24,683 bases of DNA, from IMG/VR virus record IMGVR_UViG_2512047041_000007, positions 1-24,683 of that record. One strand, written 5' to 3'. A program made the translations under genes and the position numbers. Within the stretch, counting starts at the first letter, position 1, and each line of letters opens with the position of its first letter. The DNA comes from a virus. Lineage: Duplodnaviria; Heunggongvirae; Uroviricota; Caudoviricetes. This document shows, one piece after another, positions 220 through 18,383 of the stretch. Below the pieces are notes generated by a model. It ran no database searches and was not told the origin of the DNA. It saw nothing but the letters and a program-made list of their open reading frames with translations.

Positions 220-309
220 TTTTCGAGCTCTCCCCATTTTTGCTAAATTCACAATAATGATACCGCATTATTCCATTTTGCAAACTTAAAAGTTCTCCAT
301 TGCGAAGAA

Positions 310-1892: not shown

Positions 1893-4800
1893 GCGTCGTA
1901 TCCCCCCTGATCGCTGTAGTTACTCCTGGCTTTTGCCTTCAGCCTGCGTTCACGTTCATCAAGCTGGCGTGCCACCTCCCGCGCAATATCCTGCGCACTT
2001 TGTCCTGGCTGCGTCTGAATGATGATCTGCGTCGGTGCCTCAATCCGTTGAACGAGCGGCACAGTGGCTGCGCGACTCACAATTGCTTCTCCACCTTTCG
2101 CGGGAAGTGCCAAAGGGTGCAACGGTGGAAGCTCTGCTGGCGCGGCAGCAACGCCCATCATTCCGGCAACAACGGCAGCCAGTGCAGCTGTATTTCTCCG
2201 GCTGGTCACATTTGCCGGGCCGTTAACAATTTCCGGCCCGTTTTCACCGACGATGCCAAACTGCCCTCGCGGGATATACCCGCCGCTGTCATACATCCCC
2301 GCAAAGCCATATCCCCATGATGGAAAACCACCCGATGGCATCATCACTTTACCGTCTGCATTCACCGTCGCAGGTTGCTGACGCGTCACGCTTTCCGGCA
2401 GTTTTGCCTTTGCGGCCTCTTTACTGACAATGCCGAGCTTCTCCAGCAACCAGGAAACGCCGGATTTCAGGGAGTCCAGCGGATGCATGACCATATTCAG
2501 CCCTTCCGCCAGTGCCTCCCCGAATCGCCGCCCCATTGCCGCTGCACTCTGCAGTTCGGCAGAGGTCGACTTAACGGGCGTCAGCAGATCAGTAAACCAG
2601 CCCCACAGCGCCTGTACTTTGTCGCCAATCCACTGAAACACAGGCTTAAGTGGTTCGAATGCAGCACTGATGGGACCTGCCGCCGCTTTGAATCCTTCCA
2701 CCACGCCACCGAGAAATGCGGTGATGGGTTGCCAGTATTTCCAGACAACCAGCGCCACGCCCGCCAGTGCAGTAACCACAAGACCTATCGGACTGAGCAG
2801 AGCACCTAACAGACCAGATATGGCATACAGGGCAACGCGCAGCATCGCCAGCGGACCAGATGCAAGCACACGAAGCACCGCGCCTGCGGCAGCCAGTCCA
2901 CCGCGCAGTACCGCCAGAGGATTCATAAACATCACAGCAACAGCACGTAAACCGGATAATCCAGACCGCAAAAGTGCAACCGGCGCACCTGCTACAGTTT
3001 TAAGGACATTTCCCGTCAGTGATGCCGTGCGGCGCAAAGACGACAACGGCGCAGTAAGTAAACCTGCGGCGTTGCCCGATGAAGCAAGCCCGCGTCGCAG
3101 CAGTGCCAGTGGTGCGCCAGCCAGCCAGGACAACGCGCTGCTGGTTCGAGTTACTGCTGCCGTAACGGAAGATAACGTTTTGATACCCAGCACAGAGAAT
3201 CCCAGACGGATCACTGCCAGCGGCCCCAGCACTGCAGCCAGCGCCACCGCTAAGGTGCCGAGGCCGACGGTAACCGCAGCCACAACAGCCGATGCTTTCA
3301 TCAGTGTGCCTGTCAGTTCCGGGTTAGCTTCCACCCAGCGACGCAACGCCCCCGTGACGCTTTTCACCGTGTACAGAATATCCATCAGCGGCTGGCGCAG
3401 CGTTTCGCCCAGGCTGCTGAAGGTGTTCTGCGCTCCGGTTTTGACCAGCAACCACTGCGCAGAAAGTGAATCCTTGTTAATGTCGGATTCTTTCTGCATG
3501 GAGCCGAGCGCATCATTGCCCGCTGTCAGTTTTAACTGACGCTGCAGTTCCGGCAGGTTGTTTGCCAGTTTCGCCGCGTCATCGCCAAACTCTTTACCAA
3601 ACAACATAGTCATGGCAGACAGGCGCTTGTCCTGCGGCAGCGCGTTTACCTTCTCCAGCACGCGCTGGATGGTTCCCATCGCATCCTTCGTCATCTGCTT
3701 TTCAATCACTTCAGGATTGAGTTTCAGCAGATTCATCCCTTCAAAGAAACTTTTGCTTTGCATGGTGGCAATGGACAATTCACACACCATCGCGTTTGCT
3801 GCACTGGCTGCAACCTCTGGCGCAGCGCCCAGTGTCAGGAAGGTGGAACCCAGCGCCGCCGCTTTACGATAATCCAGACGGTCAGCCACACCGCCCAGAC
3901 GTTGCATCACATCAATGATGTCTGCCCCTTTCGACATGGCGTTATCATCCAGATAGTTCAGCGCATCACCGAGCTGTTCAATATTGCGGGTGGGGATTTT
4001 GTAGAGCTGGGCGATTTTCCCCAGACTTTCTGACAGTTCATCCGCTGGCAGCTCAAAGGCTGTTGCCGCCTTTGCTGCCGTACTGGCGAAGGCCAGCAGG
4101 TCACGTTTCTGATCTTCCCAACTGTCGTCAGGGTTTGCGACGTTCATGCGCGCGCCACCTTCAACCAGTGCAGCGAAATCCACAGCACCGTTTTCCATCG
4201 GCAACTGTTCGCTGGCAGCCTTGATGGCATCCTGCATTTCATAAAAACGTGCAGTGCGGTTGCCATTATCGTCACGCAGACCATTGACCTGCTTTGCCAC
4301 ACCTTTCATGGCATCTTCCATGCTGGTATAGCTTTTTACTGCCGCCATCACTGGTGCGCCCATTGCCAGCCCTGCAGCCGTGGTGGTGGCTCCGGCACCT
4401 GCAATACGATCACGCACCTCCAGCGAACGGGCATAACTGGCACGCGCTGCATTCATCCTGCGCTGAGCTTCCCCCAGTCGCTTCAGCCGCGCCTCCTGTT
4501 TCGAAAGTTCCTGGTTATAACGTGATGTTTCACGGGCTAAACGGGCAGTTGCTCCCGCATCGTCTTTCGCAGAAATTCCCGCCCGGTACAGTTCAGCACG
4601 CACAAGCGCCGTCTGCTGCTGCAGCTTTTTCTGGCGTTCTTCCAGGCGCTGAACAGCCAGCCGTTGACGGCCCAGAGCAACAACCTGACGTTGCGAAGGC
4701 GGCCCCATCGCTCCCAGTTCCTGACTGAGCAAATTTGCACGCTGGCGGGCATAGTTCAGCCTGTCGCCTAATTTCTGATTTTCTGCCTGCAGCTTTCGGA

Positions 4801-4966
4801 AGCTGTCCAGACTGCTCCCGGCCTGATCAAGCTGCTTTATTGCATCGCGGGATTTTTTGACAGCAGCAGCCAGTTCTCTTGAACTGGCCTGCGCAGATCG
4901 AAATGGGCGGGTGAGCTTGTCAACCGCATTAAGAATGACCTGCAGACGCAGGTTGTTATCACTCAT
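1889..4966 (-). CDS. T: Tail tape measure protein
   Basis: 1025-aa ORF, coiled-coil-rich N-terminus, Ala/Gly/Leu-rich repetitive hydrophobic middle, located between E/E' and U as in P2. Confidence 0.9.
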   Translation of the reverse strand: MSDNNLRLQVILNAVDKLTRPFRSAQASSRELAAAVKKSRDAIKQLDQAGSSLDSFRKLQAENQKLGDRLNYARQRANLLSQELGAMGPPSQRQVVALGRQRLAVQRLEERQKKLQQQTALVRAELYRAGISAKDDAGATARLARETSRYNQELSKQEARLKRLGEAQRRMNAARASYARSLEVRDRIAGAGATTTAAGLAMGAPVMAAVKSYTSMEDAMKGVAKQVNGLRDDNGNRTARFYEMQDAIKAASEQLPMENGAVDFAALVEGGARMNVANPDDSWEDQKRDLLAFASTAAKAATAFELPADELSESLGKIAQLYKIPTRNIEQLGDALNYLDDNAMSKGADIIDVMQRLGGVADRLDYRKAAALGSTFLTLGAAPEVAASAANAMVCELSIATMQSKSFFEGMNLLKLNPEVIEKQMTKDAMGTIQRVLEKVNALPQDKRLSAMTMLFGKEFGDDAAKLANNLPELQRQLKLTAGNDALGSMQKESDINKDSLSAQWLLVKTGAQNTFSSLGETLRQPLMDILYTVKSVTGALRRWVEANPELTGTLMKASAVVAAVTVGLGTLAVALAAVLGPLAVIRLGFSVLGIKTLSSVTAAVTRTSSALSWLAGAPLALLRRGLASSGNAAGLLTAPLSSLRRTASLTGNVLKTVAGAPVALLRSGLSGLRAVAVMFMNPLAVLRGGLAAAGAVLRVLASGPLAMLRVALYAISGLLGALLSPIGLVVTALAGVALVVWKYWQPITAFLGGVVEGFKAAAGPISAAFEPLKPVFQWIGDKVQALWGWFTDLLTPVKSTSAELQSAAAMGRRFGEALAEGLNMVMHPLDSLKSGVSWLLEKLGIVSKEAAKAKLPESVTRQQPATVNADGKVMMPSGGFPSWGYGFAGMYDSGGYIPRGQFGIVGENGPEIVNGPANVTSRRNTAALAAVVAGMMGVAAAPAELPPLHPLALPAKGGEAIVSRAATVPLVQRIEAPTQIIIQTQPGQSAQDIAREVARQLDERERRLKAKARSNYSDQGGYDA

Positions 4967-5030
4967 CGTTGGCCCCGCTTCTCTGAATCGCTTTATACCG
5001 CCATTCCAGCACTTCGGTCAGCGGCATAAC

Positions 5031-5395
5031 GTCAGTAACGGATGGCGGCCAGTGAAAAATGGTGGCGATATCTGCCACCAGATCGTCAACCGTCAGGCTG
5101 TCGGTAAACCGGCAAGCACCGACTTCTTCAACAAAAAAGTGACAACCTCAACCGACATGGCAGTGAGATCTGCCGGGTCCATCTCTGCAATTTCCTGTGC
5201 AGTCAGTGCCGGACTGGAGATGCGGGGGATCACGGTCATCATCGCGTTTACATCCATATCCATAATGGCCTGCAGGCGTGTACCGCGCAGCGCACCGGAC
5301 TGCGGTTTACGCAGCACAATTTCGGTGATTTCTGTTTTACCGCGCTTGATGGGGGTATCCAGTTGAATGGTCTTTTCAGTCTGCTTATCGCTCAT
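5031..5395 (-). CDS. E': Tail assembly chaperone E+E' (programmed -1 frameshift product, about 121 aa)
   Basis: Minus-strand mRNA reads ACU UUU UUG UUG at plus 5129-5140; slipping -1 on UUUUUUG gives an open frame VEEVGACRFTDSLTVDDLVADIATIFHWPPSRY ending at TGA (plus 5031-5033). Translated by hand. Confidence 0.65.
5093..5395 (-). CDS. E: Tail assembly chaperone E
   Basis: 100-aa ORF directly upstream of T, contains the slippery heptamer T_TTT_TTG near its 3' end. Confidence 0.85.
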   Translation of the reverse strand: MSDKQTEKTIQLDTPIKRGKTEITEIVLRKPQSGALRGTRLQAIMDMDVNAMMTVIPRISSPALTAQEIAEMDPADLTAMSVEVVTFLLKKSVLAGLPTA

Positions 5396-5449
5396 TTTGC
5401 TGTCCTGTCAATTGGGTTCTGGCGCGGTATCCCGCGCCGTTCAGATATA

Positions 5450-5965
5450 TCAGAGGCCGAGGGCGTTGCGGTGCGCTTCCATCAGGTCCACACCGTCCAC
5501 AATTTCCACCATGTTGATAAGGTCCACTTCATAGAGCACCTCACCATTGATGGTCAGCTTCGCGTAGCTGTTGGTACTGGTCACTTTGGTGGTGTTGCTT
5601 TCGCCCGTCTTCCACTCGCCGGAATCCACTTCTTTGTGACGTCCACGCACGACAAGCTCCACGGCCTGCACTTCCCCGGTATCGTCACGCTGAATAGAGC
5701 CGGTAAAGCGCAGCTGGATGCCATCCACCGTGGCTTTACCCATCTGTTTAAACAGCAGCAATTCAGTACCACCAATGGAAAATTCTGTATCCAGCGCACT
5801 GTCATCAAGCCCCAGATCCACATCCACCGCACCCGGCATTCCGCCGCCGCGATACTTCTCATATTTGCGGGTAAATTTCGGCAGCGTCAGCGACTCAACG
5901 ATCCCCTGCCAGTTGTTCCCGTCGTTAACCAGGTTCAGGTGTTTTAATTTGCGTGGTAAAGCCAT
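5450..5965 (-). CDS. FII: Tail tube protein FII
   Basis: 171-aa ORF downstream of the sheath gene; size and sequence resemble P2 gpFII. Confidence 0.9.
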   Translation of the reverse strand: MALPRKLKHLNLVNDGNNWQGIVESLTLPKFTRKYEKYRGGGMPGAVDVDLGLDDSALDTEFSIGGTELLLFKQMGKATVDGIQLRFTGSIQRDDTGEVQAVELVVRGRHKEVDSGEWKTGESNTTKVTSTNSYAKLTINGEVLYEVDLINMVEIVDGVDLMEAHRNALGL

Positions 5966-5974
5966 GTTGTCCCC

Positions 5975-7147
5975 TTACGCGCTGACCTGGCTGGCGAAAT
6001 TAACCAGGTACTGATCGGTGATGCGCTGACGCAGCATCAGGTTTTCAAGTGGCGGCACTGGCGTGTAGTCGTAGTCGATGGTGAGTTTTCCGGCTTTCAG
6101 CGTGTCTTTGTCGTTCACCGACTCATCCAGCCAGCAATCACCACCAATGAGATAGCCCTGACTGACCAGGCTGCGCATTTTGGCGCGGATACCTTCGATA
6201 ATGTCGCGGGCCAGCGACGGGTTAAGCGGTTTATCCACCGCCCACATGTGTGCTTCTGCCATCGTGTCCATCAGCACCTGCGCCGTGCGGGTGTAGTTTT
6301 CGAAGGCAAAGAGCGGGTCATCACTCAGGCAGCGGGAACCCCAGAAGCGGAAACCGTCTTTACGCACAAGCGTGGTGACGTCGTTCTGGTTCAGCAGACC
6401 TGCATCGGTTGCCGGGTCCTGCAGATCCCAGAACACATCTGCAGAAATTCCGGTGACACCGTTCACGCCCACGTTGGACAGGCTTTTGTGCCATCCGGTC
6501 TGCTCGTCAATTTTGGCGCGCAGACCAAGCGCACGGGCGGTGGCATATGCCGTTGCTTCGGCATTCAGCACCGTGTCCCAGCCAGTAAAGTCAGGCCAGA
6601 TCAGCATCCCTTCGCGCTGGCTGAAGTTTTCGCGGTAAGTGATCGCCTCCTGCACTGTCTTGCAGCCATACGCTGACAGGTAAGCAAATCCACGCAGGCT
6701 TTGCGCCACGCTCAGCAACTCAGTAGCTACCGCCTTGGTGTCGTGGCCTGGCACGCCGAGAATGCGCGGTTTAACGCCGAGCTGTGACTGGGCAGATAAC
6801 AGGGCTTTCATACCTGTTTTTTTACCTTCAGCAGTCACTGCGCCGATGATATTGGTCGTGGTTTCGTCTTCCGTTTCACCCTGCGGCACACGCACAACAA
6901 TGGTCACGGGTTTTGCCTGGTCAGCGATGGCATCCAGCGAACGGGCCAGAGTACCTGACTCACCCGCTTTACCGCTGGCAGTCAGCACATCAGTGATCAG
7001 CACGGGTTTATTAAGAGGAAACATTTTTGCATCGGCATCATCGCCCGTGCAGACCATACCCACGATGGCGGTGCTCACCGTGGTAATAGATCGGGTACCT
7101 TCGTTGACTTCAACAACGCGCACCCCGTGGTGGTAATCCTGAGCCAT
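5975..7147 (-). CDS. FI: Contractile tail sheath protein FI
   Basis: 390-aa ORF resembling P2 gpFI; first gene of the FI-FII-E-T-U-D operon. Confidence 0.9.
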
Positions 7148-7223
7148 AGTGGCGAACCTCCTGATTGGATTAGGCTTCGCCCTATGTTGAAGTGATTGTG
7201 CCTGACAAACAGCTAAGCGCAGT

Positions 7224-7241
7224 TGTGTCGTTATTCACACA
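7224..7241 (-). promoter_or_regulatory. Candidate Ogr-dependent late promoter element (TGT-N12-ACA dyad) upstream of FI
   Basis: TGTGTCGTTATTCACACA lies about 80-95 bp upstream of the FI start codon; matches the P2/P4 late-promoter activator-site pattern. Confidence 0.5.
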
Positions 7242-7289
7242 AAATAACGGTATTTGTCTGCTTGCAGGGATAATCAACATAATGCTGAT

Positions 7290-7856
7290 TCAGGGGGATT
7301 CATTGATCTTATTTGCCGGAAATTTTCTATAAATGGTAGAAACGCCTACATCAAAAATCAGTGCAATACGCTGTCTTGATTCTCCGGCCTCGAGTAAACG
7401 CCCAATCTGTGCCCACTGTTCGGTGGTCAACTTAGGACGGCGTCCACCTACTCTGCCTTTGGCACGAGCTGCAGCCAGCCCTGCCCTGGTACGTTCAACT
7501 ATCAGTTCGCGTTCCATTTCAGCCAGGGCACCCATGACATGAAAAAAGAAACGGCCCATTGGGGTACTGGTATCAATACTGTCAGTCAGGCTTCTGAAAT
7601 TCACACCACGCTGGCGCAACTCTTCTATCAGCGTAACAAGATGCCGCATACTGCGCCCCAACCTGTCCAGCTTCCAGACAACCAGCGTGTCTCCTGCCGA
7701 TAGTGTCCTGAGTAGTTTTTTCAGCCCCGGTCTGTCGGACTTAGTGCCACTGATTTTGTCCTCAAAAATCTGCTCACATCCCGCGCAGTTCAGTGCATTA
7801 CGTTGCAAATCGGTGTTCTGGTCATTTGTTGACACGCGTACATAGCCAATAAGCAT
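7290..7856 (-). CDS. Serine-recombinase DNA invertase (Hin/Gin/Cin/Pin family)
   Basis: Translation MLIGYVRVSTNDQNTDLQRNAL...GDTLVVWKLDRLGRS...GRFFFHVMGALAEMERELIVERT is near-identical in motif order to Hin/Gin, including the catalytic Ser in YVRVSTxDQ and a C-terminal HTH. Start taken at the third Met of the ORF. Confidence 0.9.
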   Translation of the reverse strand: MLIGYVRVSTNDQNTDLQRNALNCAGCEQIFEDKISGTKSDRPGLKKLLRTLSAGDTLVVWKLDRLGRSMRHLVTLIEELRQRGVNFRSLTDSIDTSTPMGRFFFHVMGALAEMERELIVERTRAGLAAARAKGRVGGRRPKLTTEQWAQIGRLLEAGESRQRIALIFDVGVSTIYRKFPANKINESP

Positions 7857-7883
7857 GATCATCCCCCTGAATAAAAACCGGAG

Positions 7884-8273
7884 ATGATGCCAGTTAGCTG
7901 TTACCTCTGCATTTTCTTAAACGTTGGTTTGGGAGAATTATCTCTGGCTGGCACTGCATCGGGTGTCATTGGCCTGAATGGGTATGTAACGATCCCGTTA
8001 ATTATTTCAGGTTCCCGGAGAACACTGATTATTCAGTGGGGGCAGGCGAGATTTGGTGGGTCTGGTGGTGAAGATGCCGGATATCTTAACGATTTTCCTT
8101 TTGCCTTTCCGTCAGCATGTTATGGAATGATAGTTAGTCATGTGGGGCATACACCTTCAGGCGCAGGAATCCTGTCGGCTTCTGCAATTACATCAAATCA
8201 GTTCCGCGGTTTTTCAAGCATAGCGACTGCTGTAAACGCTGTATTAGGTCGTTATATCGCTATAGGGGTGTAA
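7884..8273 (+). CDS. Alternative tail-fibre C-terminal variable segment, silent in this orientation
   Basis: ORF runs through the crossover site; from the GLGE motif onward it encodes a different C-terminus (LSLAGTASGVIGLNGY...). It has no independent N-terminal domain, so it would be expressed only as an H fusion after inversion. Confidence 0.55.
   Translation: MMPVSCYLCIFLNVGLGELSLAGTASGVIGLNGYVTIPLIISGSRRTLIIQWGQARFGGSGGEDAGYLNDFPFAFPSACYGMIVSHVGHTPSGAGILSASAITSNQFRGFSSIATAVNAVLGRYIAIGV
7912..7937. other. 26-bp invertase crossover site (hix/gix-like), proximal to the invertase gene
   Basis: ttttcttaaacg-tt-ggtttgggagaa: two imperfect 12-bp half-sites around a 2-bp core, same architecture as hixL; its reverse complement shares 14 contiguous bp with the site at 9775-9800. 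Confidence 0.65.
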
Positions 8274-8274
8274 T

Positions 8275-8712
8275 ATGTTTTATAGTCCATCTTTAAACAT
8301 TTTTGTGAATCCTGCACTTAAGGATGATTACATTAATGCAAATTCATGGCCAGATGATGCTCTGGCTGTCAGTGATGATGTTTATAATGAATTTGCAATC
8401 AATACGCCTCCAGATGACAAAATTCGTGTTGCAGGAAAAAATGGATTACCCACATGGGCACTAATACCTCCACCATCACATGAAGAACTTATTCAACAGG
8501 CAGAATCAGAAAGGCAATTATTGCTTAATCAGGCCAACGAATACATGAACAGTAAACAATGGCCCGGTAAAGCCGCTATTGGTCGTCTGAAAAGCGAGGA
8601 ACTGGCGCAATATAATTCGTGGCTGGATTATCTGGACGCACTGGAGCTAGTCGATACTACCGGTGCGCCAGATATTGAATGGCCTACGCCTCCGGCAGTT
8701 CAGGCCAGATGA
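8275..8712 (+). CDS. Alternative tail-fibre assembly chaperone (Tfa'), partner of the silent fibre tip
   Basis: 145-aa ORF starting 1 bp after the alternative fibre segment; C-terminus DTTGAPDIEWPTPP parallels the C-terminus of the minus-strand Tfa (DTSTAPDVIWPELP). Confidence 0.75.
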   Translation: MFYSPSLNIFVNPALKDDYINANSWPDDALAVSDDVYNEFAINTPPDDKIRVAGKNGLPTWALIPPPSHEELIQQAESERQLLLNQANEYMNSKQWPGKAAIGRLKSEELAQYNSWLDYLDALELVDTTGAPDIEWPTPPAVQAR

Positions 8713-9286
8713 CATCCGGCGCGGTGCTGGTATCTGTTGCCGCCACCGCGTCAATGTAATCCAGCACGGCGTTAAGTCGGGTTGTTTCTGCCTGCGTCAA
8801 CTTCCGTCCGGCCTGTAATTTCAGCTGAATCAGACTAATGGAAGCCATTGCTGCATCAATCAGTGACTGGCGCTGTGCTTCTGCCGCGTCTACTGCGGCA
8901 CTATGCTGTGCCTCAGTATCCGTCACCCATTTCTCACCATCCCATTTATCATATGGCGTTAACGGGGCGATAGTGGTTGTATTTTCAGGGTAATCACCCG
9001 GAGCTGTGATTTCTTTCGATTCTCCTGTTTCGGTGCTATAGATGATTTCACCGCGATGGTCTGGCACATATTCCCATGAGTTAAAATCTGCAGAACGGCA
9101 GATTGCATAACCAGCTTTATGTGTAACTGGTGCATCTAAACAAGAACATGCCGGGATACCGACGCCAACCGCAAGATATTCAGTTGATGTGGAAATATAT
9201 TCCCGCGTTTCACCATCATAATTATAAATGGTAATGTCTCCCGCTTTTATGGCAATGAGTTCGTTATTTAATACGGCTTTATTCAT
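8684..9286 (-). CDS. G: Tail-fibre assembly chaperone (gpG-like), expressed orientation
   Basis: 200-aa ORF immediately downstream of H with ATGA-type coupling; conserved Tfa C-terminal motif. Confidence 0.82.
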   Translation of the reverse strand: MNKAVLNNELIAIKAGDITIYNYDGETREYISTSTEYLAVGVGIPACSCLDAPVTHKAGYAICRSADFNSWEYVPDHRGEIIYSTETGESKEITAPGDYPENTTTIAPLTPYDKWDGEKWVTDTEAQHSAAVDAAEAQRQSLIDAAMASISLIQLKLQAGRKLTQAETTRLNAVLDYIDAVAATDTSTAPDVIWPELPEA

Positions 9287-10836
9287 CAGGCAGCCCTCAC
9301 GATATAGTTAAATGCAATATTCCGTGGACGGGTTTCATTTATCCCATATGCTGTTGTTCTCTGATTCCCGACAAAATATCCATTTGGATTAGAAGATACA
9401 GAATAATCATCAAAATCAAGTGGGCTATCAGCACCCGGCGTCAGGCTTGCAATATATCCTCTTCCCATAACTTCTGATGCTGGTATTTCTTTTGTACGAT
9501 AATCACTAACTCTGAAGAGCTGCCCTTGGTGGGTGTGTGATTCCACTCCTCCATTCTGAAGACTTAGCAAGGCACGTACAGCATCAATACCACGCCCGTC
9601 ATCCCAGCCACGAATAAACTCACCACGTAAATCAGGCAATTTATTTGTCGGATAAGCCTTTGCCAGTTCCGGGTATTCTTCAGCAGAAAAAGCGGCACCG
9701 TTGCATTTCAGCCAGCCTGTTGGCGGAGTGGCTGAAGGCCACGGAACAGGCACCCCAACCGGTAATGCAGAGCCTTCTCCCAAACCAAGGTATGTGAGAA
9801 GACCAGCTACATCCTTTCCACTCAAATTGGTAAGCGTATTGTCCAGCGGTTGTTTACCTGCCAGCGCATTAAGCATTGTCGTGGCAAAGTTCGGATCATT
9901 CCCCAGTGCCGCCGCCAGTTCGTTCAGTGTATCCAGTGCAGCAGGTGCAGAACCCACCATTCCTGCAATCGCCGATTTCACAAAAGCCGTAGTGGCAATC
10001 TGTGTATTGTTGACCGACTGCGCCGCCGTGGGGGCTGTTGGCGTTCCGGTGAGTGCCGGACTCGACAACGGTGCTTTTAGTGCCAGCGCATTGTTAATGG
10101 TGGTACTGAAATTCGGATCATTGTTAATGGCTGCGGCTATTTCTTTCAGCGTGTCCAGCGTGGCTGGCGCACCATTAATAAGGGCCGTCAGTGCCGCCTG
10201 TACAAACGCAGTGGTCGCAACCTGCGTGGTATTATTCCCCGCCGCTGGCGTTGGCGCTTTGGGGGTTCCGGTAAATGTCGGGCTGGCTTTTGGCGCGTAC
10301 TGTGAATGCGGGTCCGGTGCGGCAAGATGTTTTGCCATCTGATCATCCGCGTACACCTTCAGCTCCAGTGCCTTGTCATCCACATACTTGCGGGTTGCCA
10401 GCACTACAGCAGGGTCGATTTTCAGGGTGATATTGTCCGTGCTGCTGGTAATCAGCACCATGCGCACGGTCTGAGTGCGCCCGCTACCTTCAGCCAGTTG
10501 CGGCTTATAGCTTTCCGGGCAGTTGCCCACGGCAATCAATGCACCTGACTCATCAAACAGGCCCACTTCACGTATCCACCAACCGCCCTCGTTTTCAGGG
10601 ATCACCTGTTCGGCAATAATCTGGCTGCTGTTCTGCGGGTCGATATAAAGCATATTCAGCGCAGCCCGGCGTTTCTCATTTACCAGTGCCGTCTGCTTTG
10701 CGTCCGGCGTTGGCAATACTCCACCGCCATCGCCCACCGCCATATGGGTAATTTTTAGCGGCACACCGAGCGCGGCGGCGCTGGCAAGTTTCGCCGCGCC
10801 AATATCCGTCAGCAGGGTATAAAATTTTGTGCTCAT
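9286..10836 (-). CDS. H: Tail fibre protein H (constant N-terminal part plus currently fused variable C-terminus)
   Basis: 516-aa ORF with a P2 gpH-like N-terminus, an internal pair of about 50-aa repeats, and the crossover site inside the codons for LTYLGLGE. Confidence 0.9.
   Translation of the reverse strand: MSTKFYTLLTDIGAAKLASAAALGVPLKITHMAVGDGGGVLPTPDAKQTALVNEKRRAALNMLYIDPQNSSQIIAEQVIPENEGGWWIREVGLFDESGALIAVGNCPESYKPQLAEGSGRTQTVRMVLITSSTDNITLKIDPAVVLATRKYVDDKALELKVYADDQMAKHLAAPDPHSQYAPKASPTFTGTPKAPTPAAGNNTTQVATTAFVQAALTALINGAPATLDTLKEIAAAINNDPNFSTTINNALALKAPLSSPALTGTPTAPTAAQSVNNTQIATTAFVKSAIAGMVGSAPAALDTLNELAAALGNDPNFATTMLNALAGKQPLDNTLTNLSGKDVAGLLTYLGLGEGSALPVGVPVPWPSATPPTGWLKCNGAAFSAEEYPELAKAYPTNKLPDLRGEFIRGWDDGRGIDAVRALLSLQNGGVESHTHQGQLFRVSDYRTKEIPASEVMGRGYIASLTPGADSPLDFDDYSVSSNPNGYFVGNQRTTAYGINETRPRNIAFNYIVRAA
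9775..9800. other. 26-bp invertase crossover site inside gene H
   Basis: ttctcccaaacc-aa-ggtatgtgagaa; first 14 bp identical to the reverse complement of the 7912-7937 site, giving an inverted-repeat pair. Confidence 0.65.
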
Positions 10837-11438
10837 GGATTCACTCTCATTGTGTCAATAACATGGACCGCCCCGCCTTCATGCGCGGTGCCACCGGAAA
10901 TAATCGTTTCGTTGATATACGGATAGATCGTGATTTCTTCGCCAAGATAGCTGGCGGCTCCCACCCAATGCGGGCCGCTGGTCTGCAGATTGATGGACAT
11001 GCCGATCATGTGGCGGCTACATGGTTTGGCATCGCTTATCAGTCGCTCAAGTTCCAGATAGGTATCTTCAGTGATGCCCTGGTCCTGCACGCCGATATCC
11101 AGGCGAAACGTGCCCGGTGTTTCTCCGGTCTGCCACAACTCAATAATGCGGATCAGGAATCCGAACGGCTCCACCACCCGCCGCACGGCACTGGTGGTCC
11201 CTTTATGCTGATGAATATAAAAAGCATCCTTCACCACCTGGCGCTTGACGCTTTCTGTCCAGCCCTCGTCCCAGCGATCCACAGAGAACGCCCAGGCGAG
11301 ATAAGGCAGGAAACTGACCGGACAGGTTGCCGGATTCCACAAATCACGAAGCGGCACCTGCAGATCAGAAATCCCGCTGCAGGTTTGCGCCAGTCGGCAC
11401 TCCAGTGGTGTTGAACCCGGTGGCAGCAGACTATTCAT
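10833..11438 (-). CDS. I: Baseplate protein I
   Basis: 201-aa ORF between J and H, P2 gpI-like; overlapping start/stop with neighbours. Confidence 0.88.
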   Translation of the reverse strand: MNSLLPPGSTPLECRLAQTCSGISDLQVPLRDLWNPATCPVSFLPYLAWAFSVDRWDEGWTESVKRQVVKDAFYIHQHKGTTSAVRRVVEPFGFLIRIIELWQTGETPGTFRLDIGVQDQGITEDTYLELERLISDAKPCSRHMIGMSINLQTSGPHWVGAASYLGEEITIYPYINETIISGGTAHEGGAVHVIDTMRVNP

Positions 11439-12339
11439 CCGTTCCTCCGTTGGTTACGCTCCACTGCGTACATGATGCCGCCTGTGTTTTGTTCAGGACC
11501 ACATCCGCCAGAGGAGAAGCCAGCTCCACACGCTGCACCCCCTCAACATGCAGGGCGGCAAAGATGGCGCTACGGCGAATATCCCGACCAAGACGCGTCT
11601 GACTGGCGATGTACTTCTGCAGGCTGGCTTTTGCCGCTGCCATTACCGGCTCTGCTTCCGGTCCAGGATAGAGAAAAATGGTGGCTTCCACGCGATACGG
11701 GATGATTTCTGCGCTGCGAACCGTAAGACGGTCAGCCACCGGGCGGACGTTCTCACTGTTCAGAGCTTTTTCCACCACGTCCAGCAGGTCTTTTTCTGCA
11801 GTTCCATCGCCTTCGCGGCTAAGGACAGTCAGCACCACCTCTGCAGGTGCCGGGCTGGTTGCACTGGCATCCGCCACCCGACCGTCGGCGCTTCGGGCAT
11901 GAAATTCATAAGCTGCAGTTGGCCCCGCAACAGAAAGCCCTTCAAAGGCTGCAGGCACACGCAGGCGCAACGCTTCATCGCTTTCCATCACAGCTGCAAC
12001 GGGCGGCACAGCATCATTATCAGCAGGCGTCACCGTCAGGCGTGTCACGTTGTAGTTGGCAGCGAGCTGGTCAAGATCGCCGCCCATCGCGTAAGCCACC
12101 ATCACCGCCTGCGCGGCTTCGTTAATGCGCTGGCGCAGAAGCAACTCACGGTAAGCGTTCTCCTGCAACAATTTAGTGGCGGGTTCAGATTCCAGTTCCA
12201 GCGTGCGGATCACTGCTTCCTGCTCATCTTTCGGATGAAGCGCCACAAATTCTGCCTTGCGTTCGGCAAGCAGCGTCTCAAAGTCCGGCACATCCACAAT
12301 CTGCGGTGCAGGCAACTGCGAAAGGTCAATCACTGCCAT
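11431..12339 (-). CDS. J: Baseplate assembly protein J
   Basis: Start placed at MAVIDLSQLPAP, which matches the remembered P2 gpJ N-terminus; the ORF extends 13 codons further upstream to 12378. Confidence 0.88.
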   Translation of the reverse strand: MAVIDLSQLPAPQIVDVPDFETLLAERKAEFVALHPKDEQEAVIRTLELESEPATKLLQENAYRELLLRQRINEAAQAVMVAYAMGGDLDQLAANYNVTRLTVTPADNDAVPPVAAVMESDEALRLRVPAAFEGLSVAGPTAAYEFHARSADGRVADASATSPAPAEVVLTVLSREGDGTAEKDLLDVVEKALNSENVRPVADRLTVRSAEIIPYRVEATIFLYPGPEAEPVMAAAKASLQKYIASQTRLGRDIRRSAIFAALHVEGVQRVELASPLADVVLNKTQAASCTQWSVTNGGTDE

Positions 12340-12685
12340 TCTCTGCTCCTGTTGATACGGAAAGGGACACAGGCACACCGTTATTCCGCCGCCCGGTCAG
12401 CTCCACCACCATTGAACCGTCAAAATTGCTGTTGATGGTGATGGAATCCAGCGTCAACCGTGGCTCCCAGCGACTCAGCGCCACATACACTGCCGACATG
12501 ACCTGCAGGCGTAATGCCGGATTTTGTGGCTGATCTATCAGTGCCGACAGCAGGGAACCATATTCCCGGCGGGCAATACGGCTACCCTGCGGTGTCAGCA
12601 GAATGTCCCGCACCGACTGGCGCAGATGATCAATATCAGTAATGACTTTGCCGCTGGTATTGTTCATCCCGCTATAAAGCGTCAT
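12326..12685 (-). CDS. W: Baseplate protein W (gp25-like)
   Basis: 119-aa ORF between V and J, size and position of P2 gpW. Confidence 0.88.
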   Translation of the reverse strand: MTLYSGMNNTSGKVITDIDHLRQSVRDILLTPQGSRIARREYGSLLSALIDQPQNPALRLQVMSAVYVALSRWEPRLTLDSITINSNFDGSMVVELTGRRNNGVPVSLSVSTGAENGSD

Positions 12686-13260
12686 ACCGGGCCTCCGGTT
12701 GTATCGCCGCCTTTCAGGACGCCAGTATGCTGATGCGCATCAACCACGATCCCGTTAGAACTCATCGCTCCGCCGCCCTGGGTAACGCCACCATTGATCA
12801 CCACTTCGCTGTTAATGCGCGTGCGGTCAGCCTCCAGTACAAACTCACTGGTTTTCATGGTGATGTTGTCAGCAGCCTCAATGACCATTGATTTGATGCC
12901 CCTGACATACCAGCGCCCGGTGGCGGGTTCGTATTCAAACCAGCCACCGTCAGGATGTTCTGTCACGCAGGCGTCCGCCGACGTCGACGGTGGTGCGAAC
13001 TGATTCGAATAGACAGCGGGCAGCGCAAAGGCGGTTTCCAGATTGCCGCCCAGACTCAGCAGCACCACCTGCTCACCTTCCGATGGTCGCCACCATGTAC
13101 GGGCATTCCCGGCACGCAGCGTCAGCCAGCTGATCCAGTTGGTTTCAAGCTCGCCCGTTTTCACCCGGCAAAGCCAGTTTTCCCTGTCCACTTCGGTGAC
13201 TACCCCTGTGCGGATCAGGTTGGTGATAAGGCGCATGATTTCGGTTAATTGTGCGTTCAT
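12682..13260 (-). CDS. V: Baseplate spike/hub protein V
   Basis: 192-aa ORF, first gene after a late-promoter dyad, P2 gpV-like. Confidence 0.88.
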   Translation of the reverse strand: MNAQLTEIMRLITNLIRTGVVTEVDRENWLCRVKTGELETNWISWLTLRAGNARTWWRPSEGEQVVLLSLGGNLETAFALPAVYSNQFAPPSTSADACVTEHPDGGWFEYEPATGRWYVRGIKSMVIEAADNITMKTSEFVLEADRTRINSEVVINGGVTQGGGAMSSNGIVVDAHQHTGVLKGGDTTGGPV

Positions 13261-13306
13261 AGGGAAAGGTTGCCATCAGGGGAAGAAAGGCGGCAGTGCT
13301 GCAACT

Positions 13307-13324
13307 TGTATCAGTGCTGATACA
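13307..13324 (-). promoter_or_regulatory. Candidate Ogr-dependent late promoter element upstream of V
   Basis: Near-perfect palindrome TTGTATCAGTGCTGATACAA containing TGT-N12-ACA, 47-64 bp upstream of the V start, in the S-V intergenic gap. Confidence 0.55.
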
Positions 13325-13328
13325 AAGA

Positions 13329-13775
13329 TCACCCCGCCAGCCATTGCAGAATCATGTCGCGGGTCATTGCCTCAACATCATCATTTACACCCAGAAGGCG
13401 ACGCTCTGCGTAACGCACCTCCGGTCCCTTACGACTGACGCGATCTCGCAGGCCGTAATGGTGAACGCGGGCAATGCGCTGCACCTTGCCTTCAAACTGC
13501 ACGCTGGCAGAGTCGGCGCTGGCGGAAGTTTTCAGGTATTTTGTGGTGCGCAGCTTTGCAAACATCTGACGTTTGATACGGCCTTTTTTACTGCGTGCTG
13601 TTACCCGTCGCGGTTCATAACTGCTGCCATCTGGATTGCGCTGCATTCTGATATTTTGCTGCTGTGTCCGGCGTAGTTCCTGCGCCAGCTGGCGCATCAT
13701 GCGGCTTCTTGCGGCTGGCTCCAGATTCGCCAGCAAGGCACTCAGCCAGTCGTCCACTTTCTGCAGTTCAGCCAC
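13329..13775 (-). CDS. S: Tail completion protein S
   Basis: 148-aa ORF, P2 gpS-like in size and position; 8-bp overlap with R. Confidence 0.85.
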   Translation of the reverse strand: MAELQKVDDWLSALLANLEPAARSRMMRQLAQELRRTQQQNIRMQRNPDGSSYEPRRVTARSKKGRIKRQMFAKLRTTKYLKTSASADSASVQFEGKVQRIARVHHYGLRDRVSRKGPEVRYAERRLLGVNDDVEAMTRDMILQWLAG

Positions 13776-14301
13776 GTTTCACCGTCCACATTTCTTCAGG
13801 TTCATCAGGTTCCGCTATAGCTTCAACGCTCGACACACTGCCGTCAGTGCTGACCAGCACACGCTCCGTCAGTTGCAGGTTGAGGCTGATATCACAGACA
13901 TCGTTGCGCAGAATATCCACCTCAAAGGTGAATAGCTTTTCCCGTAACGCCGGGTTATGGTTGAGGCTGATATCACAGACATCGTTGCGCAGAATATCCA
14001 CCTCAAAGGTGAATAGCTTTTCCCGTAACGCCGGGTTATTGATGGCATCGGGCTGGTTATCACGCAGCCACAGCAAAACCGGGGCCATCAGCAGATTCTG
14101 GTCGCCGCTGAAATCCTCAATCACCACGTTCAGGGTGTAGCGGTACTCCCATGACATGGAGCTGGCCCCCGTGGCAACCAGCGAACCGTTATCCACAAAC
14201 AGATGCAGTTTGTCCGGGTTATTGCGGACATAAGGCACCGCTTTATTGAGGGCGTGGCGCAGGGATTGTGGTTTGTTCACTGTTTCGCTCCTGACACGCA
14301 A
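13768..14301 (-). CDS. R: Tail completion protein R, carrying an in-frame 27-aa tandem duplication
   Basis: 177-aa ORF; subtracting the duplicated 27 residues gives about 150 aa, close to P2 gpR. Confidence 0.85.
   Translation of the reverse strand: MRVRSETVNKPQSLRHALNKAVPYVRNNPDKLHLFVDNGSLVATGASSMSWEYRYTLNVVIEDFSGDQNLLMAPVLLWLRDNQPDAINNPALREKLFTFEVDILRNDVCDISLNHNPALREKLFTFEVDILRNDVCDISLNLQLTERVLVSTDGSVSSVEAIAEPDEPEEMWTVKRG
13878..14039. repeat. Perfect tandem direct duplication, 2 x 81 bp, inside gene R
   Basis: Positions 13878-13958 and 13959-14039 are identical base for base; flanking bases differ at both ends. Confidence 0.95.
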
Positions 14302-14533
14302 TAATCATGTCCACTTTGTCTGCACAGACCGCCCAGGCGGCCTCCGTTTCATCCAGCAACGCATTCAGATCACCGTTAGTGCGCGGTGCTGCCTGCTCCA
14401 GCCGACACGGCGTCACTCGCGGACAACCACTGACGGTAAGCTGCACCTCCGGTGAGTGCCGGACGTTCCCGCAGCCGGATAATGTCAGCAGGCAAAGGAG
14501 TATCAGCCCAGTGGCGTAAATCCTCGTTCTCAC
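14243..14533 (-). CDS. lysC: LysC, outer-membrane lipoprotein spanin (Rz1-like), nested out of frame in lysB and overlapping R
   Basis: 96-aa ORF; N-terminal signal peptide with lipobox LTLSGC; Pro-rich mature part; embedded arrangement typical of Rz/Rz1 pairs. Confidence 0.7.
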   Translation of the reverse strand: MRTRIYATGLILLCLLTLSGCGNVRHSPEVQLTVSGCPRVTPCRLEQAAPRTNGDLNALLDETEAAWAVCADKVDMIIACQERNSEQTTIPAPRPQ

Positions 14534-14804
14534 GTTTCAGTTCCTCGATCCGGCGTTGTCGTTGTCTCAGCTGTGCGCTGGTCTGTTCTGCTTCGGCATA
14601 GAGCCGCGCCTGCTCCCGGTTATTGGTTTCAGTCAGAATGGACAGGCTGATAAGCTGGCTGTTGCTCTTTGCCAGTGCCTGGCTTTTGCTCTGCAGCTCG
14701 TTTGCCTGCGTGCTGATGGTCTGGCTGGCATCAGCCAGCCGCCACGTCTGCCAGCCCAGCGCCGCTAGTAATAACGCCAGCACAACCAGCAGCAACCGGT
14801 TCAT
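14376..14804 (-). CDS. lysB: LysB, inner-membrane spanin (Rz-like)
   Basis: 142-aa ORF, N-terminal transmembrane helix followed by a coiled-coil-rich periplasmic domain. Confidence 0.8.
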   Translation of the reverse strand: MNRLLLVVLALLLAALGWQTWRLADASQTISTQANELQSKSQALAKSNSQLISLSILTETNNREQARLYAEAEQTSAQLRQRQRRIEELKRENEDLRHWADTPLPADIIRLRERPALTGGAAYRQWLSASDAVSAGAGSTAH

Positions 14805-15178
14805 GCTGCTACCTGTTGCGCCATCTGATTACGGGTGATCCAGAAGGCAATAACGGTCAGTAGATAAAAGACCAGGGTAATAGCCCACCCCGTCCATGCG
14901 AGACTTACAACAATCAGCAATCGCATCACCCAACTGATAAATACGTTTTCTTTTCGGGTAATTGTCTTCAGCAAAGATGCCCTTAACTCCTGCCAGAGCG
15001 GGCCATTCTGAATTAACGCAGCCAGTGCTACCGGAATTACCGCCCATGTCAGCAAACAGGCTACCCAAACGCCGGACGCTGCCAGTACCGGAAAGATCCC
15101 CTGCGGATACACCATTGCTGCGATTAACAGCGCCATCCATAACATCAGAAACAGTCCGCTGATTAATTTCTTTTTCAT
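14801..15178 (-). CDS. lysA: LysA-like membrane protein (lysis timing)
   Basis: Start placed at MKKKLISG (AGGGAG Shine-Dalgarno upstream, 1 nt after the endolysin stop); multiple hydrophobic helices. The ORF track gives a longer 149-aa version. Confidence 0.7.
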   Translation of the reverse strand: MKKKLISGLFLMLWMALLIAAMVYPQGIFPVLAASGVWVACLLTWAVIPVALAALIQNGPLWQELRASLLKTITRKENVFISWVMRLLIVVSLAWTGWAITLVFYLLTVIAFWITRNQMAQQVAA

Positions 15179-15179
15179 T

Positions 15180-15692
15180 TCAGTTTGCTCCCTGTAAACA
15201 CCAGGCCATCTCCCGCGCACGGCGGTTATCCAGCCCCTGATTAAACACACCTTTTACATAAACCCAGCGCGGCAACTGTCGGCACGCATCCGCCCAGCGC
15301 CGCTGATTGAGCAATTTCACCAGCGTGGAGCTGCAGGCATTGCCTGTCCCCACGTTGAAGGCAAACGACACCACCGAGTCATACACCTTTTGTGGCGGCT
15401 GTTGCTTCACACATCTTTCCAGCGCCCGCTCCACACGCAGCACGTTGGAGATAAGCCCTTCTGCTGCCTGTCGTTCCGTAATGGTTTTGCCGGGAATGAC
15501 GCCCGACGTATTACCAATGCCGTCAGTCCATACACCCGCGCTGCACTGATAGGGCTGCAGACGACAGCCTTCGTAATCGGCAATCAGTTTCAGTCCCTCC
15601 ACGGAGGTGTGAAGCTGCTGAAAACCCGGCAGCGTGGCAGCAATAGCCAGCACGGTCCCGACAAGGCAGCGTTTAACGATTGATGGATTCAT
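15180..15692 (-). CDS. K: Endolysin, T4-lysozyme-like muramidase with a hydrophobic N-terminal SAR-type segment
   Basis: Motif EGCRLQPYQCSAGVWTDGIGNT parallels the P1 Lyz / P21 R catalytic region; N-terminus VGTVLAIAATLPGF is a weakly hydrophobic helix typical of signal-arrest-release endolysins. Confidence 0.85.
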   Translation of the reverse strand: MNPSIVKRCLVGTVLAIAATLPGFQQLHTSVEGLKLIADYEGCRLQPYQCSAGVWTDGIGNTSGVIPGKTITERQAAEGLISNVLRVERALERCVKQQPPQKVYDSVVSFAFNVGTGNACSSTLVKLLNQRRWADACRQLPRWVYVKGVFNQGLDNRRAREMAWCLQGAN

Positions 15693-15888
15693 AGTCCTCC
15701 CGCGAGATCTGCCCGTCGCGCAGAAGCTGGTAGGCTTTGTGTTTGTAGTACCAGTTGATAGCCAGCATCAGCACACCAATCATCAGGCCGCCCAGCGTTG
15801 AGGCATCCTTGATGGACAAATCGCCCAGCCAGACCAGCACAACGGCGATGCAGTACGTGATAAAGGCGCTGATTCGCTCAAGCGTCAT
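15673..15888 (-). CDS. Y: Small holin (two predicted TMDs, pinholin-like)
   Basis: 71-aa ORF immediately upstream of and overlapping the endolysin; two hydrophobic helices and a charged C-terminus. Confidence 0.72.
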   Translation of the reverse strand: MTLERISAFITYCIAVVLVWLGDLSIKDASTLGGLMIGVLMLAINWYYKHKAYQLLRDGQISREDYESINR

Positions 15889-15891
15889 AAT

Positions 15892-16095
15892 TCAGTCCCA
15901 TAGCTGGACGGTCTGCACGGTGGTGGTTGTCGGAATGTCCGGCAGCTCCACCTGCAGCCCGTGAGGTAAAAAGGGGCCATATTCGGCAAGCCCCGGATTT
16001 GCCTTCAGTACCTGCTCCGTGACACCCTGCGTGCGCCCGTAATGACGCCAGCAAAGCGCGTCCACCGTGTCATACTGATGCGCACGCACTTTCAT
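15892..16095 (-). CDS. X: Tail protein X (LysM-like)
   Basis: 67-aa ORF, same length and position as P2 gpX between L and the holin. Confidence 0.8.
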   Translation of the reverse strand: MKVRAHQYDTVDALCWRHYGRTQGVTEQVLKANPGLAEYGPFLPHGLQVELPDIPTTTTVQTVQLWD

Positions 16096-16559
16096 CAGAT
16101 AAGCTCCACTGTGCAGTGCGGCGCGTCCTGTACCCGGCTGATGGCCCAGCGGGCGTCACGCCATAAATCACCGCTGGCTTCCGCCAGTTCCTCGCCCCGC
16201 TTCACACCGGATGCCGTGGCGTCATAGTCCTGGTAACGTTCGTTGAGCATGGCGCGTGCCCAGCAGTAAACCGCGTTGAAATAGTGCTGAATGCGCTCAC
16301 TTTTGCCGTCCAGCTGTTCCGCCGGAACCTCTGCCAGCGAGGCATACCCCAGCATCTGCTGGCATCTGCGAAACTCATACAGCTCTGCGTTGACCTCCGA
16401 AATTGCCGACAGCGCAACCTGCTTTAAACGCGGCTGCGTCACCGTACCGTCAGTGCGCATCACACTGCGGAACTCCGACAGATCCACATCAGGCCAGAAC
16501 GGCGTATTCCTGATGATTTCCGCCTGTTCCGGTGCCTGTTCTGGCGCAACAAACTTCAT
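16095..16559 (-). CDS. L: Head completion protein L
   Basis: P2 gpL-like; start chosen at the ATG preceded by GGAGA (MKFVAPEQ). The ORF extends to a GTG at 16622 that lacks a ribosome-binding site. Confidence 0.78.
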   Translation of the reverse strand: MKFVAPEQAPEQAEIIRNTPFWPDVDLSEFRSVMRTDGTVTQPRLKQVALSAISEVNAELYEFRRCQQMLGYASLAEVPAEQLDGKSERIQHYFNAVYCWARAMLNERYQDYDATASGVKRGEELAEASGDLWRDARWAISRVQDAPHCTVELI

Positions 16560-16654
16560 GCTGCTTTCTCCTGAGATAGAGGGCGGTGGACGGGGTTTTG
16601 ATGTGGCAGTGCCTTTCGCCACCCCGTGCCGCCCGTGCGCGGGGGCACGTTCTG

Positions 16655-17305: not shown

Positions 17306-17308
17306 GAA

Positions 17309-18367: not shown

Positions 18368-18383
18368 CAGGTTTTGTGCTCCA

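Follow-up and report, generated by a model that had tools for sequence, protein, structure and literature searches.

A Pin-type invertible tail-fibre switch in a P2-like Escherichia coli prophage

We read the locus described here as a functional DNA-flipping switch of the Pin type, with a probability of roughly 94%; it lies in a P2-like E. coli prophage and exchanges the tip of the tail fibre together with its chaperone. According to this reading, a Pin-type, Fis/enhancer-dependent serine invertase of the prophage would flip a segment of ~ 1.86 kb between two 26-bp sites. Direct support comes from the anatomy of the locus, from the in-frame fusion of the fibre gene and from natural inversion at exactly these two sites (L and R below). 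The preliminary description, made from the sequence of the analysed stretch (24,683 nucleotides, hereafter the window) alone, had called such a switch, and the call was borne out by naturally inverted forms. Its anatomy was retained apart from the size of the segment, which is 1837 bp between the sites (1861 bp core to core) and not 1.9 kb. The system class is ordinary and already described, the locus being an intact counterpart of the e14 Pin system; since such switches have already been published for P2-like E. coli prophages, current understanding is unchanged by it. The features of the switch are as follows:

7290-7856, minus strand: Pin-type serine DNA invertase, 188 aa (Pfam, matches to Gin structures, RefSeq annotation)
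7767-7838, minus strand: probable recombinational enhancer, contained in the 5'-terminal part of the invertase gene (two matches to the Fis consensus)
7912-7937, plus strand: crossover site L, invertase-proximal, TTTTCTTAAACG TT GGTTTGGGAGAA, core at 7924-7925
7938-8273, plus strand: alternative C-terminus of H, silent and promoterless in the window orientation (Pfam Gp53-like_C, 1.2e-12)
8275-8712, plus strand: silent chaperone Tfa', partner of the alternative tip (Pfam Caudo_TAP, 1.3e-32)
8684-9286, minus strand: tail-fibre assembly chaperone of TfaE type, expressed form, equivalent of P2 G (Pfam Caudo_TAP, 3.1e-32)
9286-9774, minus strand: variable C-terminal part of H with a Collar-domain tip, currently expressed form (Pfam Collar, 3.1e-15)
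9775-9800, plus strand: crossover site R within gene H, TTCTCCCAAACC AA GGTATGTGAGAA, core at 9787-9788; the minus strand encodes LTYLGLGE
9801-10,836, minus strand: constant N-terminal part of H, outside the segment and unchanged in both orientations (Pfam Phage_tail_fib, 6.8e-65)

In a repeat search, the top-ranked inverted repeat paired 7912-7937 with 9775-9800 (26 nt, 21/26 or 81% complementary, 1837 nt between arms). Across the 24.7-kb window the shared 14-nt arm, TTCTCCCAAACCAA, is present in exactly two copies, one on each strand, and the cores (TT at 7924-7925, AA at 9787-9788) agree in inverted orientation. Each site consists of two imperfect 12-bp half-sites flanking a 2-bp core, and this architecture of an inverted pair with like cores is that of DNA-invertase sites. 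When positions 7000-11000 were shuffled, 5 of 300 shuffles reached an exact inverted repeat of 14 nt whose arms were separated by 100 nt or more, and the repeat by itself is only moderately unlikely by chance. Sites L and R scored 32.3 and 31.5 bits with a half-site matrix, compared to 9.4 bits for the next best 26-mer in the window, a margin that is partly circular because the matrix was built including the window's own four half-sites. The same scan found no third full crossover site in the window, and is itself no proof that sites L and R are real. Both sites do agree with the e14 pix sites and with the published consensus quoted in PMC4134206, site L differing from the invertase-proximal e14 pix site by 1 nt. 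The repeat and motif searches thereby confirmed the two inverted 26-bp sites, 14-nt common arm and matching core of the preliminary description. Its placement of the sites relative to coding sequence was upheld by the reading frames: within H, the residues (L)LTYLGLGE are specified by site R, and the silent plus-strand ORF opens with GLGE, encoded a second time by site L.

The segment holds two convergent cassettes, each composed of a fibre tip and, directly downstream, a single Caudo_TAP (Tfa) chaperone. The constant part of the fibre lies outside, with the two opposed C-termini inside and both in frame across the site. The expressed Collar tip resembles the T4 gp37 tip and gp12, and its first ~ 70 residues past GLGE are identical to e14 StfE; the start of its TfaE-type chaperone (93% identical to e14 TfaE) overlaps the stop of H. 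The Gp53-like tip shows weak similarity to the R-type pyocin fibre tips 6cxb and 6cl5 and 37% identity to e14 StfP, and Tfa' shares 48% identity with e14 TfaP across the C-terminal 117 aa. When 7938-9774 was inverted in silico, the second tip became an in-frame continuation of the constant part of H; the product has 465 aa and a Gp53-like C-terminus, compared to 516 aa in the window orientation, and the second Tfa gene came to lie downstream. The inner half-site GGTTTGGGAGAA constitutes the GLGE codons, so that both fusions stay in frame. This 465-aa form is annotated as a phage tail protein in E. coli N32, and the proposed swap of both tip and chaperone by inversion occurs there as a natural form.

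The constant part of H, outside the segment, would be read from the phage late (V) operon. Virions made in the window orientation would have the 516-aa fibre, whose tip is of Collar type (StfE-like) and would be folded by the TfaE-type chaperone, and those made in the flipped orientation the 465-aa fibre with the Gp53-like tip and the other chaperone. Given two orientation-dependent fibres, a lysogenic culture would release two particle types with different predicted receptor specificities. Judging from the differences between tip domains, host range probably changes with orientation.

Both orientations, which the preliminary description had proposed to look for, are present among sequenced genomes, as seen by comparison between different consensus assemblies. 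The query flipped in silico matched the RefSeq genome of N32 in one piece, with 100.0% identity over all 3751 nt. The whole window is ~ 99.98% identical to the N32 prophage with only 7924-9791 inverted, and the collinear and inverted alignment blocks overlap within the shared 14-nt arms, including exactly at site L. ZH48 and ZH49, from one source, carry the same prophage with identical flanking proteins at an equal relative chromosome position, and orientation alone differs. Their segments are exact reverse complements, the outer half-sites being fixed and the inner half-sites exchanged, and the crossover interval is narrowed to 7 nt (TTGGTTT) with the core included. An orientation-only difference was also read from hit tables for SW071611 versus SW071619 and SW07163. 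Among similar prophages, 62 records had the window orientation and 53 the flipped one (counting records covering at least 80% of the query in the given orientation). The naturally inverted forms and 7-nt exchange intervals match inversion with exchange at the core dinucleotide, and strands would be exchanged at the central AA/TT of the sites.

The direct data being single consensus assemblies only, these records could also be those of a frozen relic, the database orientations representing old polymorphisms with no ongoing switching. We consider this very improbable: prophages 99.98-100% identical are nevertheless opposite in orientation, as are those of sister isolates with identical flanking proteins and the same relative prophage position, and the two orientations stand near 1:1 (62 vs 53). 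Inversion of tail-fibre segments has moreover been demonstrated experimentally in P2-like and other E. coli prophages (PMC4272514, PMC4134206), with reads about 50:50 within one culture for related prophages (PMC4134206). The chance that orientation differences arose through RecA-dependent homologous recombination between the inverted repeats, or through assembly errors, we put close to nil. Inverted repeats are in principle capable of both, but the identical stretch here measures no more than 14 nt (window) or 7 nt (ZH pair), a length that does not allow efficient recombination by RecA and falls far below what would mislead an assembler. The joints also fall at the centre of recombinase-type sites, and one aberrant event used a site with only ATACCTT in common.

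That event is a 3.6-kb inversion between site R in H and a quasi-site in the sheath gene, observed in two genomes and breaking both genes:

6182-6207, plus strand: quasi-site inside the tail-sheath gene FI, outside the normal switch, GGCGCGGATACC TT CGATAATGTCGC

AR_0013 corresponds to the window with 6196-9786 inverted (100.000% identity over 3605 nt), with a 7-nt overlap (ATACCTT) at each joint. The aberrant joint was found in 2 of 5426 genomes, and the quasi-site scores poorly by the half-site matrix, ranking 402nd in the window. Use of quasi-sites is typical of serine invertases according to Iida and Hiestand-Nauer (1987), as cited in PMC4134206.

The adjoining recombinase gene was confirmed as a Hin/Gin-family serine invertase, as first described. 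Pfam domains Resolvase (2.3e-53, residues 5-137) and HTH_7 (1.5e-15, residues 140-183) correspond to the N-terminal catalytic domain and C-terminal helix-turn-helix of a small serine recombinase of about 190 aa. The protein aligns over its full length with Gin structures 3uj3 and 4m6f (E about 1e-93), with VRVSTNDQ (Ser9) conserved; MLIGYVRVSTNDQ pairs at every residue with wild-type-serine Gin (4m6f), and the motif YVRVSTxxQ with catalytic Ser9 is in place. Identity is 87% to e14 PinE, 79% to P1 Cin, 75% to SfMu Gin and 100% to the protein of phage 500465-1. The preliminary description was prepared to give up the switch if the catalytic serine were mutated or a single orientation supported; the serine is intact and both orientations occur across genome records. 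The start is most likely the ATG at 7856, giving 188 aa as in Gin and agreeing with RefSeq, which annotates a 567-nt version of the same gene in N32. An upstream ATG at 7862 would extend the ORF and is disfavoured by the length of Gin and by the RefSeq annotation. When aligned by eye to Hin residue names, …EQWAQIGRLLEAG… (AQIGRLL) contains the Q-x-x-R-L Fis-contact motif; the invertase-specific Fis contacts in helix 1 of the Hin DNA-binding domain are Gln151, Arg154 and Leu155 (PMC3798978).

Whether this gene or another resident invertase acting in trans (e14 PinE, PinQ/PinR, or a Mu- or P1-type enzyme) does most of the flipping bears on the reading, since Din-family invertases cross-complement and inversions seen in genomes could partly come from other resident enzymes. 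The invertase-proximal site is a single base away from its e14 pix counterpart, with no difference in the inner half-sites; the e14 P segment is inverted by PinQ, an enzyme of the Qin prophage (PMC12529663); and in EC958 the Phi4 invertase is truncated, which implies that an enzyme acts in trans (PMC4134206). A minor role for the prophage's own gene is nonetheless unlikely, as this gene is full length and retains its catalytic serine, helix-turn-helix domain and enhancer sequence, recurs with 100% identity in an independent phage record and has kept its linkage to the segment across thousands of genomes. We infer that the resident invertase drives inversion.

A search of the 5' part of the invertase gene for an enhancer, as suggested in the preliminary description, gave a predicted pair of Fis motifs (7820-7834 and 7772-7786) whose centres are separated by 48 bp, the proximal centre lying 97.5 bp from the core of site L. 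Fis sites in known invertase enhancers are ~ 48 bp apart. The stretch 7767-7838 aligns with cin nt 19-90, annotated in the P1 record as the enhancer of Cin-mediated inversion (56/72 identical to cin, 63/72 to pinE), and candidate Fis motifs occupy equal gene positions (nt 23-37 and 71-85) in the window invertase, Gin, PinE and Cin. At the level of sequence, then, the locus has two Fis motifs ~ 48 bp apart and ~ 100 bp from one site, and the candidate matches the geometry of the Fis-bound 65-bp enhancer of Hin, located about 100 bp from one of its sites, hixL (PMC3798978). Fis probably binds 7767-7838, which would then function as an enhancer, although the stretch is also under coding constraint, and inversion at the locus is presumably Fis-dependent.

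The switch would be a textbook case of bet-hedging, a single prophage yielding particles with two predicted receptor specificities. The lysogen genome would be a mixture of which assemblies record one state arbitrarily, as the 62 and 53 records illustrate. In annotations the silent cassette is entered as a small gene of its own; the true alternative product is the 465-aa fusion. Host-range prediction for P2-like phages and engineered tailocins should weigh both tips. Two further ideas are speculative and, in our judgement, quite improbable: that orientation serves the lysogen as a phase-variable anti-phage defence, if H is leakily expressed, and, separately, that the sheath quasi-site offers a recurrent route to prophage inactivation. 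The former comes to mind because the Collar-type H begins like e14 StfE and is paired with the 93%-identical TfaE; StfE2, a fusion protein made by inversion of the homologous e14 P segment, has been reported to block phage T2 adsorption (PMC12529663).

The preliminary description had held the class to be known, and orthology to e14 Pin together with published inversion experiments in P2-like prophages makes it more so than was stated. The Pin/P-segment of the E. coli K-12 cryptic prophage e14 (pinE, stfE, tfaE, tfaP, stfP/ycfK) shares the layout of the window: constant fibre part, site, tip A, Tfa A, convergent Tfa B, tip B, site and invertase, the latter transcribed away from the segment in both. 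The inner half-site TTCTCCCAAACC and AA core are identical, the proximal outer half-site differs by 1 nt, and the two tfa genes have the same 29-bp tail-to-tail overlap. However, what remains of e14 is defective, and its fibre gene is either short or a pseudogene, whereas the P2-like prophage in the window has a wholly intact late region and a full-length H (516/465 aa). The Collar tip diverges from StfE in the middle (53% identity overall), and the second tips are only 37% identical.

Loci in P2-like prophages of E. coli E2348/69 (Goldberg et al.; PMC4134206) have in common with the window the host species, the kind of prophage, an invertase adjoining fibre genes and 26-bp sites; coexisting orientations were seen by sequencing and, for e14 in strain MGY, also by PCR. 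EC958 Phi2 sites (…TAAACGTT GGTTTGGGGGAA) are close to site L. Cassette content appears to differ from that of the window, and segment length differs as well (2067-3106 bp in EC958). An EPEC locus with three repeats and four variants contrasts with the window, in which only two sites exist.

Mu Gin (S/U, S'/U') and P1 Cin follow the same logic of a constant fibre part and two invertible tips with chaperones, and carry an enhancer in the 5' part of the invertase gene, where that of the window is putative. The invertase gene begins right next to a crossover site, in a register shared with Mu, whereas P1 cin is transcribed towards the segment, with cixL overlapping the 3' end of that gene. The backbones are those of Mu and P1 rather than P2-like, the segments are larger (Mu G segment 3 kb and P1 C segment 4.2 kb, compared to 1.86 kb), and the core dinucleotide is GA in SfMu gix but AA in the window. 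Salmonella Hin shares the invertase family, 26-bp sites and Q-x-x-R-L motif; unlike the window, where coding cassettes are swapped and the invertase lies outside, it flips a promoter (flagellar phase variation) and hin lies within its own segment.

The tail gene order W-J-I-H-G … FI-FII-E-T-U-D matches that of P2, with Pfam Tail_P2_I and sheath domains, and the Peduoviridae complement (Ogr, D, U, T, E, FII, FI … H, I, J, W, V, S, R and lysis genes) is present, capsid and terminase genes being found in the identical N32 prophage. By P2 reference order, the locus lies between the end of the V operon (after G) and pF/FI, which is the Z/fun slot given in the preliminary description; where P2 has a fixed H-G and an unrelated fun(Z) in the G-FI gap, the window has the invertase and the silent cassettes.

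The observation of an invertible tail-fibre switch in this prophage was confirmed, and the interpretation of the locus as a switch was supported. The features concerned are listed below with their strand.

Features of the tail-fibre switch and its neighbours
5975–7147 (−): tail sheath gene FI
7290–7856 (−): serine invertase (Pfam Resolvase, HTH_7)
from inside the crossover site at 7912–7937 to 8273 (+): open frame lacking a promoter, with a Gp53-like domain at its C-terminus
8275–8712 (+): second chaperone (Caudo_TAP), directly after the Gp53-like frame
8684–9286 (−): TfaE-type chaperone
9286–10836 (−): tail-fibre gene H (Phage_tail_fib N-terminus, Collar domain)
beyond H: equivalents of P2 I, J and W

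The best inverted repeat in positions 7000–11000 was formed by the invertase-proximal site L (7912–7937, TTTTCTTAAACGTTGGTTTGGGAGAA) and site R within H (9775–9800, TTCTCCCAAACCAAGGTATGTGAGAA), complementary at 21 of 26 positions with arms 1837 nt apart. The window has exactly two copies of their 14-nt arm, TTCTCCCAAACCAA, one on each strand, and the core dinucleotide is TT in site L and AA in site R, so that the cores are identical in inverted orientation. These results agree with the two inverted 26-bp sites, common 14-bp arm and matching core of the preliminary description. Of 300 shuffles of 7000–11000, only 5 produced an exact inverted repeat of 14 nt whose arms were separated by 100 nt or more. 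Both sites scored highly (32.3 and 31.5 bits) against a half-site matrix of collected invertase sites, while the next-ranked 26-mer in the whole window scored 9.4; as the window's own four half-sites are among those in the matrix, the scores establish no more than the number of full sites, which is two. A multi-site system, such as Min of p15B or the three-repeat EPEC locus, was ruled out on this basis, the scan of the whole window having returned just two full sites. The best single half-site score in the window belonged to a lone half-site at 20800–20813 (−), TTCTCATAAACC, for which the matrix scan found no matching second half.

Reading frames were as had been proposed: LTYLGLGE of H is encoded by site R and GLGE is encoded again by site L. 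Reverse-complementing 7938–9774 in silico gave an uninterrupted H of 465 aa, its final 111 residues encoded by the silent cassette, and a second Caudo_TAP gene lies behind this second tip; the claim that inversion would exchange both the fibre tip (the variable C-terminus of H) and its assembly chaperone, Tfa, was thus borne out. The two chaperone genes converge, and their 3′ ends have 29 bp in common (8684–8712); the same DNA therefore codes for both chaperone C-termini on opposite strands. Reference P2 has the order V-operon terminator, fun(Z), F promoter, FI, which places the invertase and silent cassettes in the fun(Z) slot, as previously suggested. Promoter and terminator counts in 7150–8000 were not above those of shuffles, and the scan gave no promoter that could be assigned to the invertase. 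Two 12-nt arms in perfect inverted repeat, one at the stop and the other at the start of the invertase ORF (ATTCAGGGGGAT at 7288–7299, ATCCCCCTGAAT at 7861–7872), were dropped as a feature, since roughly 0.5 such repeats are expected by chance per 4 kb and the region holds a second perfect 12-mer pair.

Natural inversion was seen in comparisons between Escherichia coli genomes. A 3751-nt query across the switch, with the segment flipped, aligned to the chromosome of strain N32 at 100.0% identity over its full length and in a single piece; in window orientation, the best full-length match in the E. coli collection was 96%, with none near 100%. The window and the N32 prophage were ~ 99.98% identical and in the same orientation over 1–7937 and 9775–21981, with 7924–9791 inverted and the alignment blocks overlapping exactly at the shared arms. 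The predicted 465-aa H is annotated in N32. Elsewhere in the window, a perfect 81-bp tandem duplication (13878–14039, 2.0 copies, 100% match) lies within a P2 R-like tail gene (ORF 13768–14301, −) and yields an in-frame 27-aa repeat (NPALREKLFTFEVDILRNDVCDISLN twice); the unit is present as a single copy in the otherwise near-identical N32 prophage.

A second pair was provided by pig isolates ZH49 and ZH48, in which a related prophage occupies the same relative chromosomal position, with coordinates offset by a constant 396 bp. All flanking proteins are identical, and the segment of one isolate is exactly the reverse complement of the other's; the outer half-sites are unmoved, and the differing inner half-sites GGTTTAAGAGCA and GGTTTGGGAGAA trade places, which confines the exchange to TTGGTTT, core included. 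The half-site difference in ZH49 also implies that ~ 7 nt in common around the core suffices for two sites of one switch. Hit tables showed the same orientation pattern for wastewater isolates (SW071611 versus SW071619 and SW07163), and records with a similar cassette comprised 62 in window and 53 in flipped orientation. Such differences could in principle arise by RecA recombination or misassembly; however, the common identity of 7–14 nt is too short for either, leaving a site-specific recombinase as the only reasonable agent of inversion.

Related prophages carry another silent tip after the other inner half-site, GGTTTAAGAGCA, which codes for GLRA rather than GLGE (3762–3787 of the ZH49 locus, L002, versus window 7912–7937). 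The pairing of a different tip with a different inner half-site implies that cassettes are exchanged as modules. In strain N18-04097 (NZ_CP047277.1), feature names under the match indicate that an IS421 (IS4-like) insertion breaks the homologous fibre/invertase region.

The same prophage in E. coli AR_0013 and OZ546943 displayed a different, aberrant 3.6-kb inversion. Window 6196–9786 is inverted there at 100.000% identity over 3605 nt, the ends being site R and a weak quasi-site in the sheath gene (6182–6207, GGCGCGGATACC TT CGATAATGTCGC), at 2495–2520 and 6090–6115 of this locus (L004). The quasi-site, 402nd in the site scan, has only ATACCTT in common with site R. The inversion carries the invertase gene along, flipped, and splits FI and H, both marked as pseudogenes by RefSeq; its joint was present in 2/5426 genomes. 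Cin is known to recombine quasi-sites that have a matching core (Iida and Hiestand-Nauer 1987, as cited in PMC4134206).

Assignment of the enzyme to the Hin/Gin family of serine invertases held: besides its Resolvase and HTH_7 domains, it aligned over its whole length with known Gin structures (E ~ 1e-93), and on this alignment the catalytic serine is kept, in VRVSTNDQ, with no mutation of this residue. The protein is 100% identical to that of Escherichia phage 500465-1, 87% to e14 PinE, 79% to P1 Cin and 75% to SfMu Gin. The P1 record annotates the Cin inversion enhancer at cin nucleotides 19–90, over which the window gene, without gaps, matches cin at 56/72 and pinE at 63/72 positions. Fis consensus matches occurred at gene nucleotides 23–37 and 71–85 in 4/4 genes (window 7820–7834 and 7772–7786), their centres 48 bp apart. 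Calculated from the degenerate motif, ~ 1 match per 128 nt is expected, and the matches here carry weight solely through their position at the annotated P1 enhancer and their 48-bp spacing. The distance from the proximal motif to the site L core is 97.5 bp, in agreement with the native Hin layout, where the enhancer is about 100 bp from the site (PMC3798978). The invertase also contains Q-x-x-R-L (AQIGRLL), which in Hin contacts Fis. A candidate for the Fis-bound enhancer sought in the 5′ part of the gene was found at sequence level; with a degenerate motif in DNA that is also coding, we infer that inversion may be Fis-dependent.

We assign the mechanism to the Pin/Gin/Cin family with high confidence. 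The window matches the P segment of e14, a defective prophage of E. coli K-12, in layout and parts: its chaperone is 93% identical to TfaE, its Collar tip begins with ~ 70 residues that are the same as in StfE, StfP and TfaP are relatives of its second tip and chaperone, and tfaP/tfaE share the 29-bp tail-to-tail overlap. The e14 sites have an identical inner half-site and core, with the invertase-proximal outer half-site one base off. The window thus represents the Pin system in intact form, within a P2-like prophage. That the class was already known, as the preliminary description held, is clear from DNA invertase labels in phage records with this gene and from two reports. Goldberg et al. 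(2014, PMC4272514) found invertible loci by whole-genome sequencing, and P2-like prophages of E. coli strain E2348/69 carried two of these, with two and four variants; the PCR confirmation described there is of e14 in strain MGY. Forde et al. (2014, PMC4134206) observed a reversed prophage tail-fibre segment in about half of PacBio reads of ST131 strain EC958 and tabulated 26-bp crossover sites very like those of the window. The locus belongs to an already described kind.
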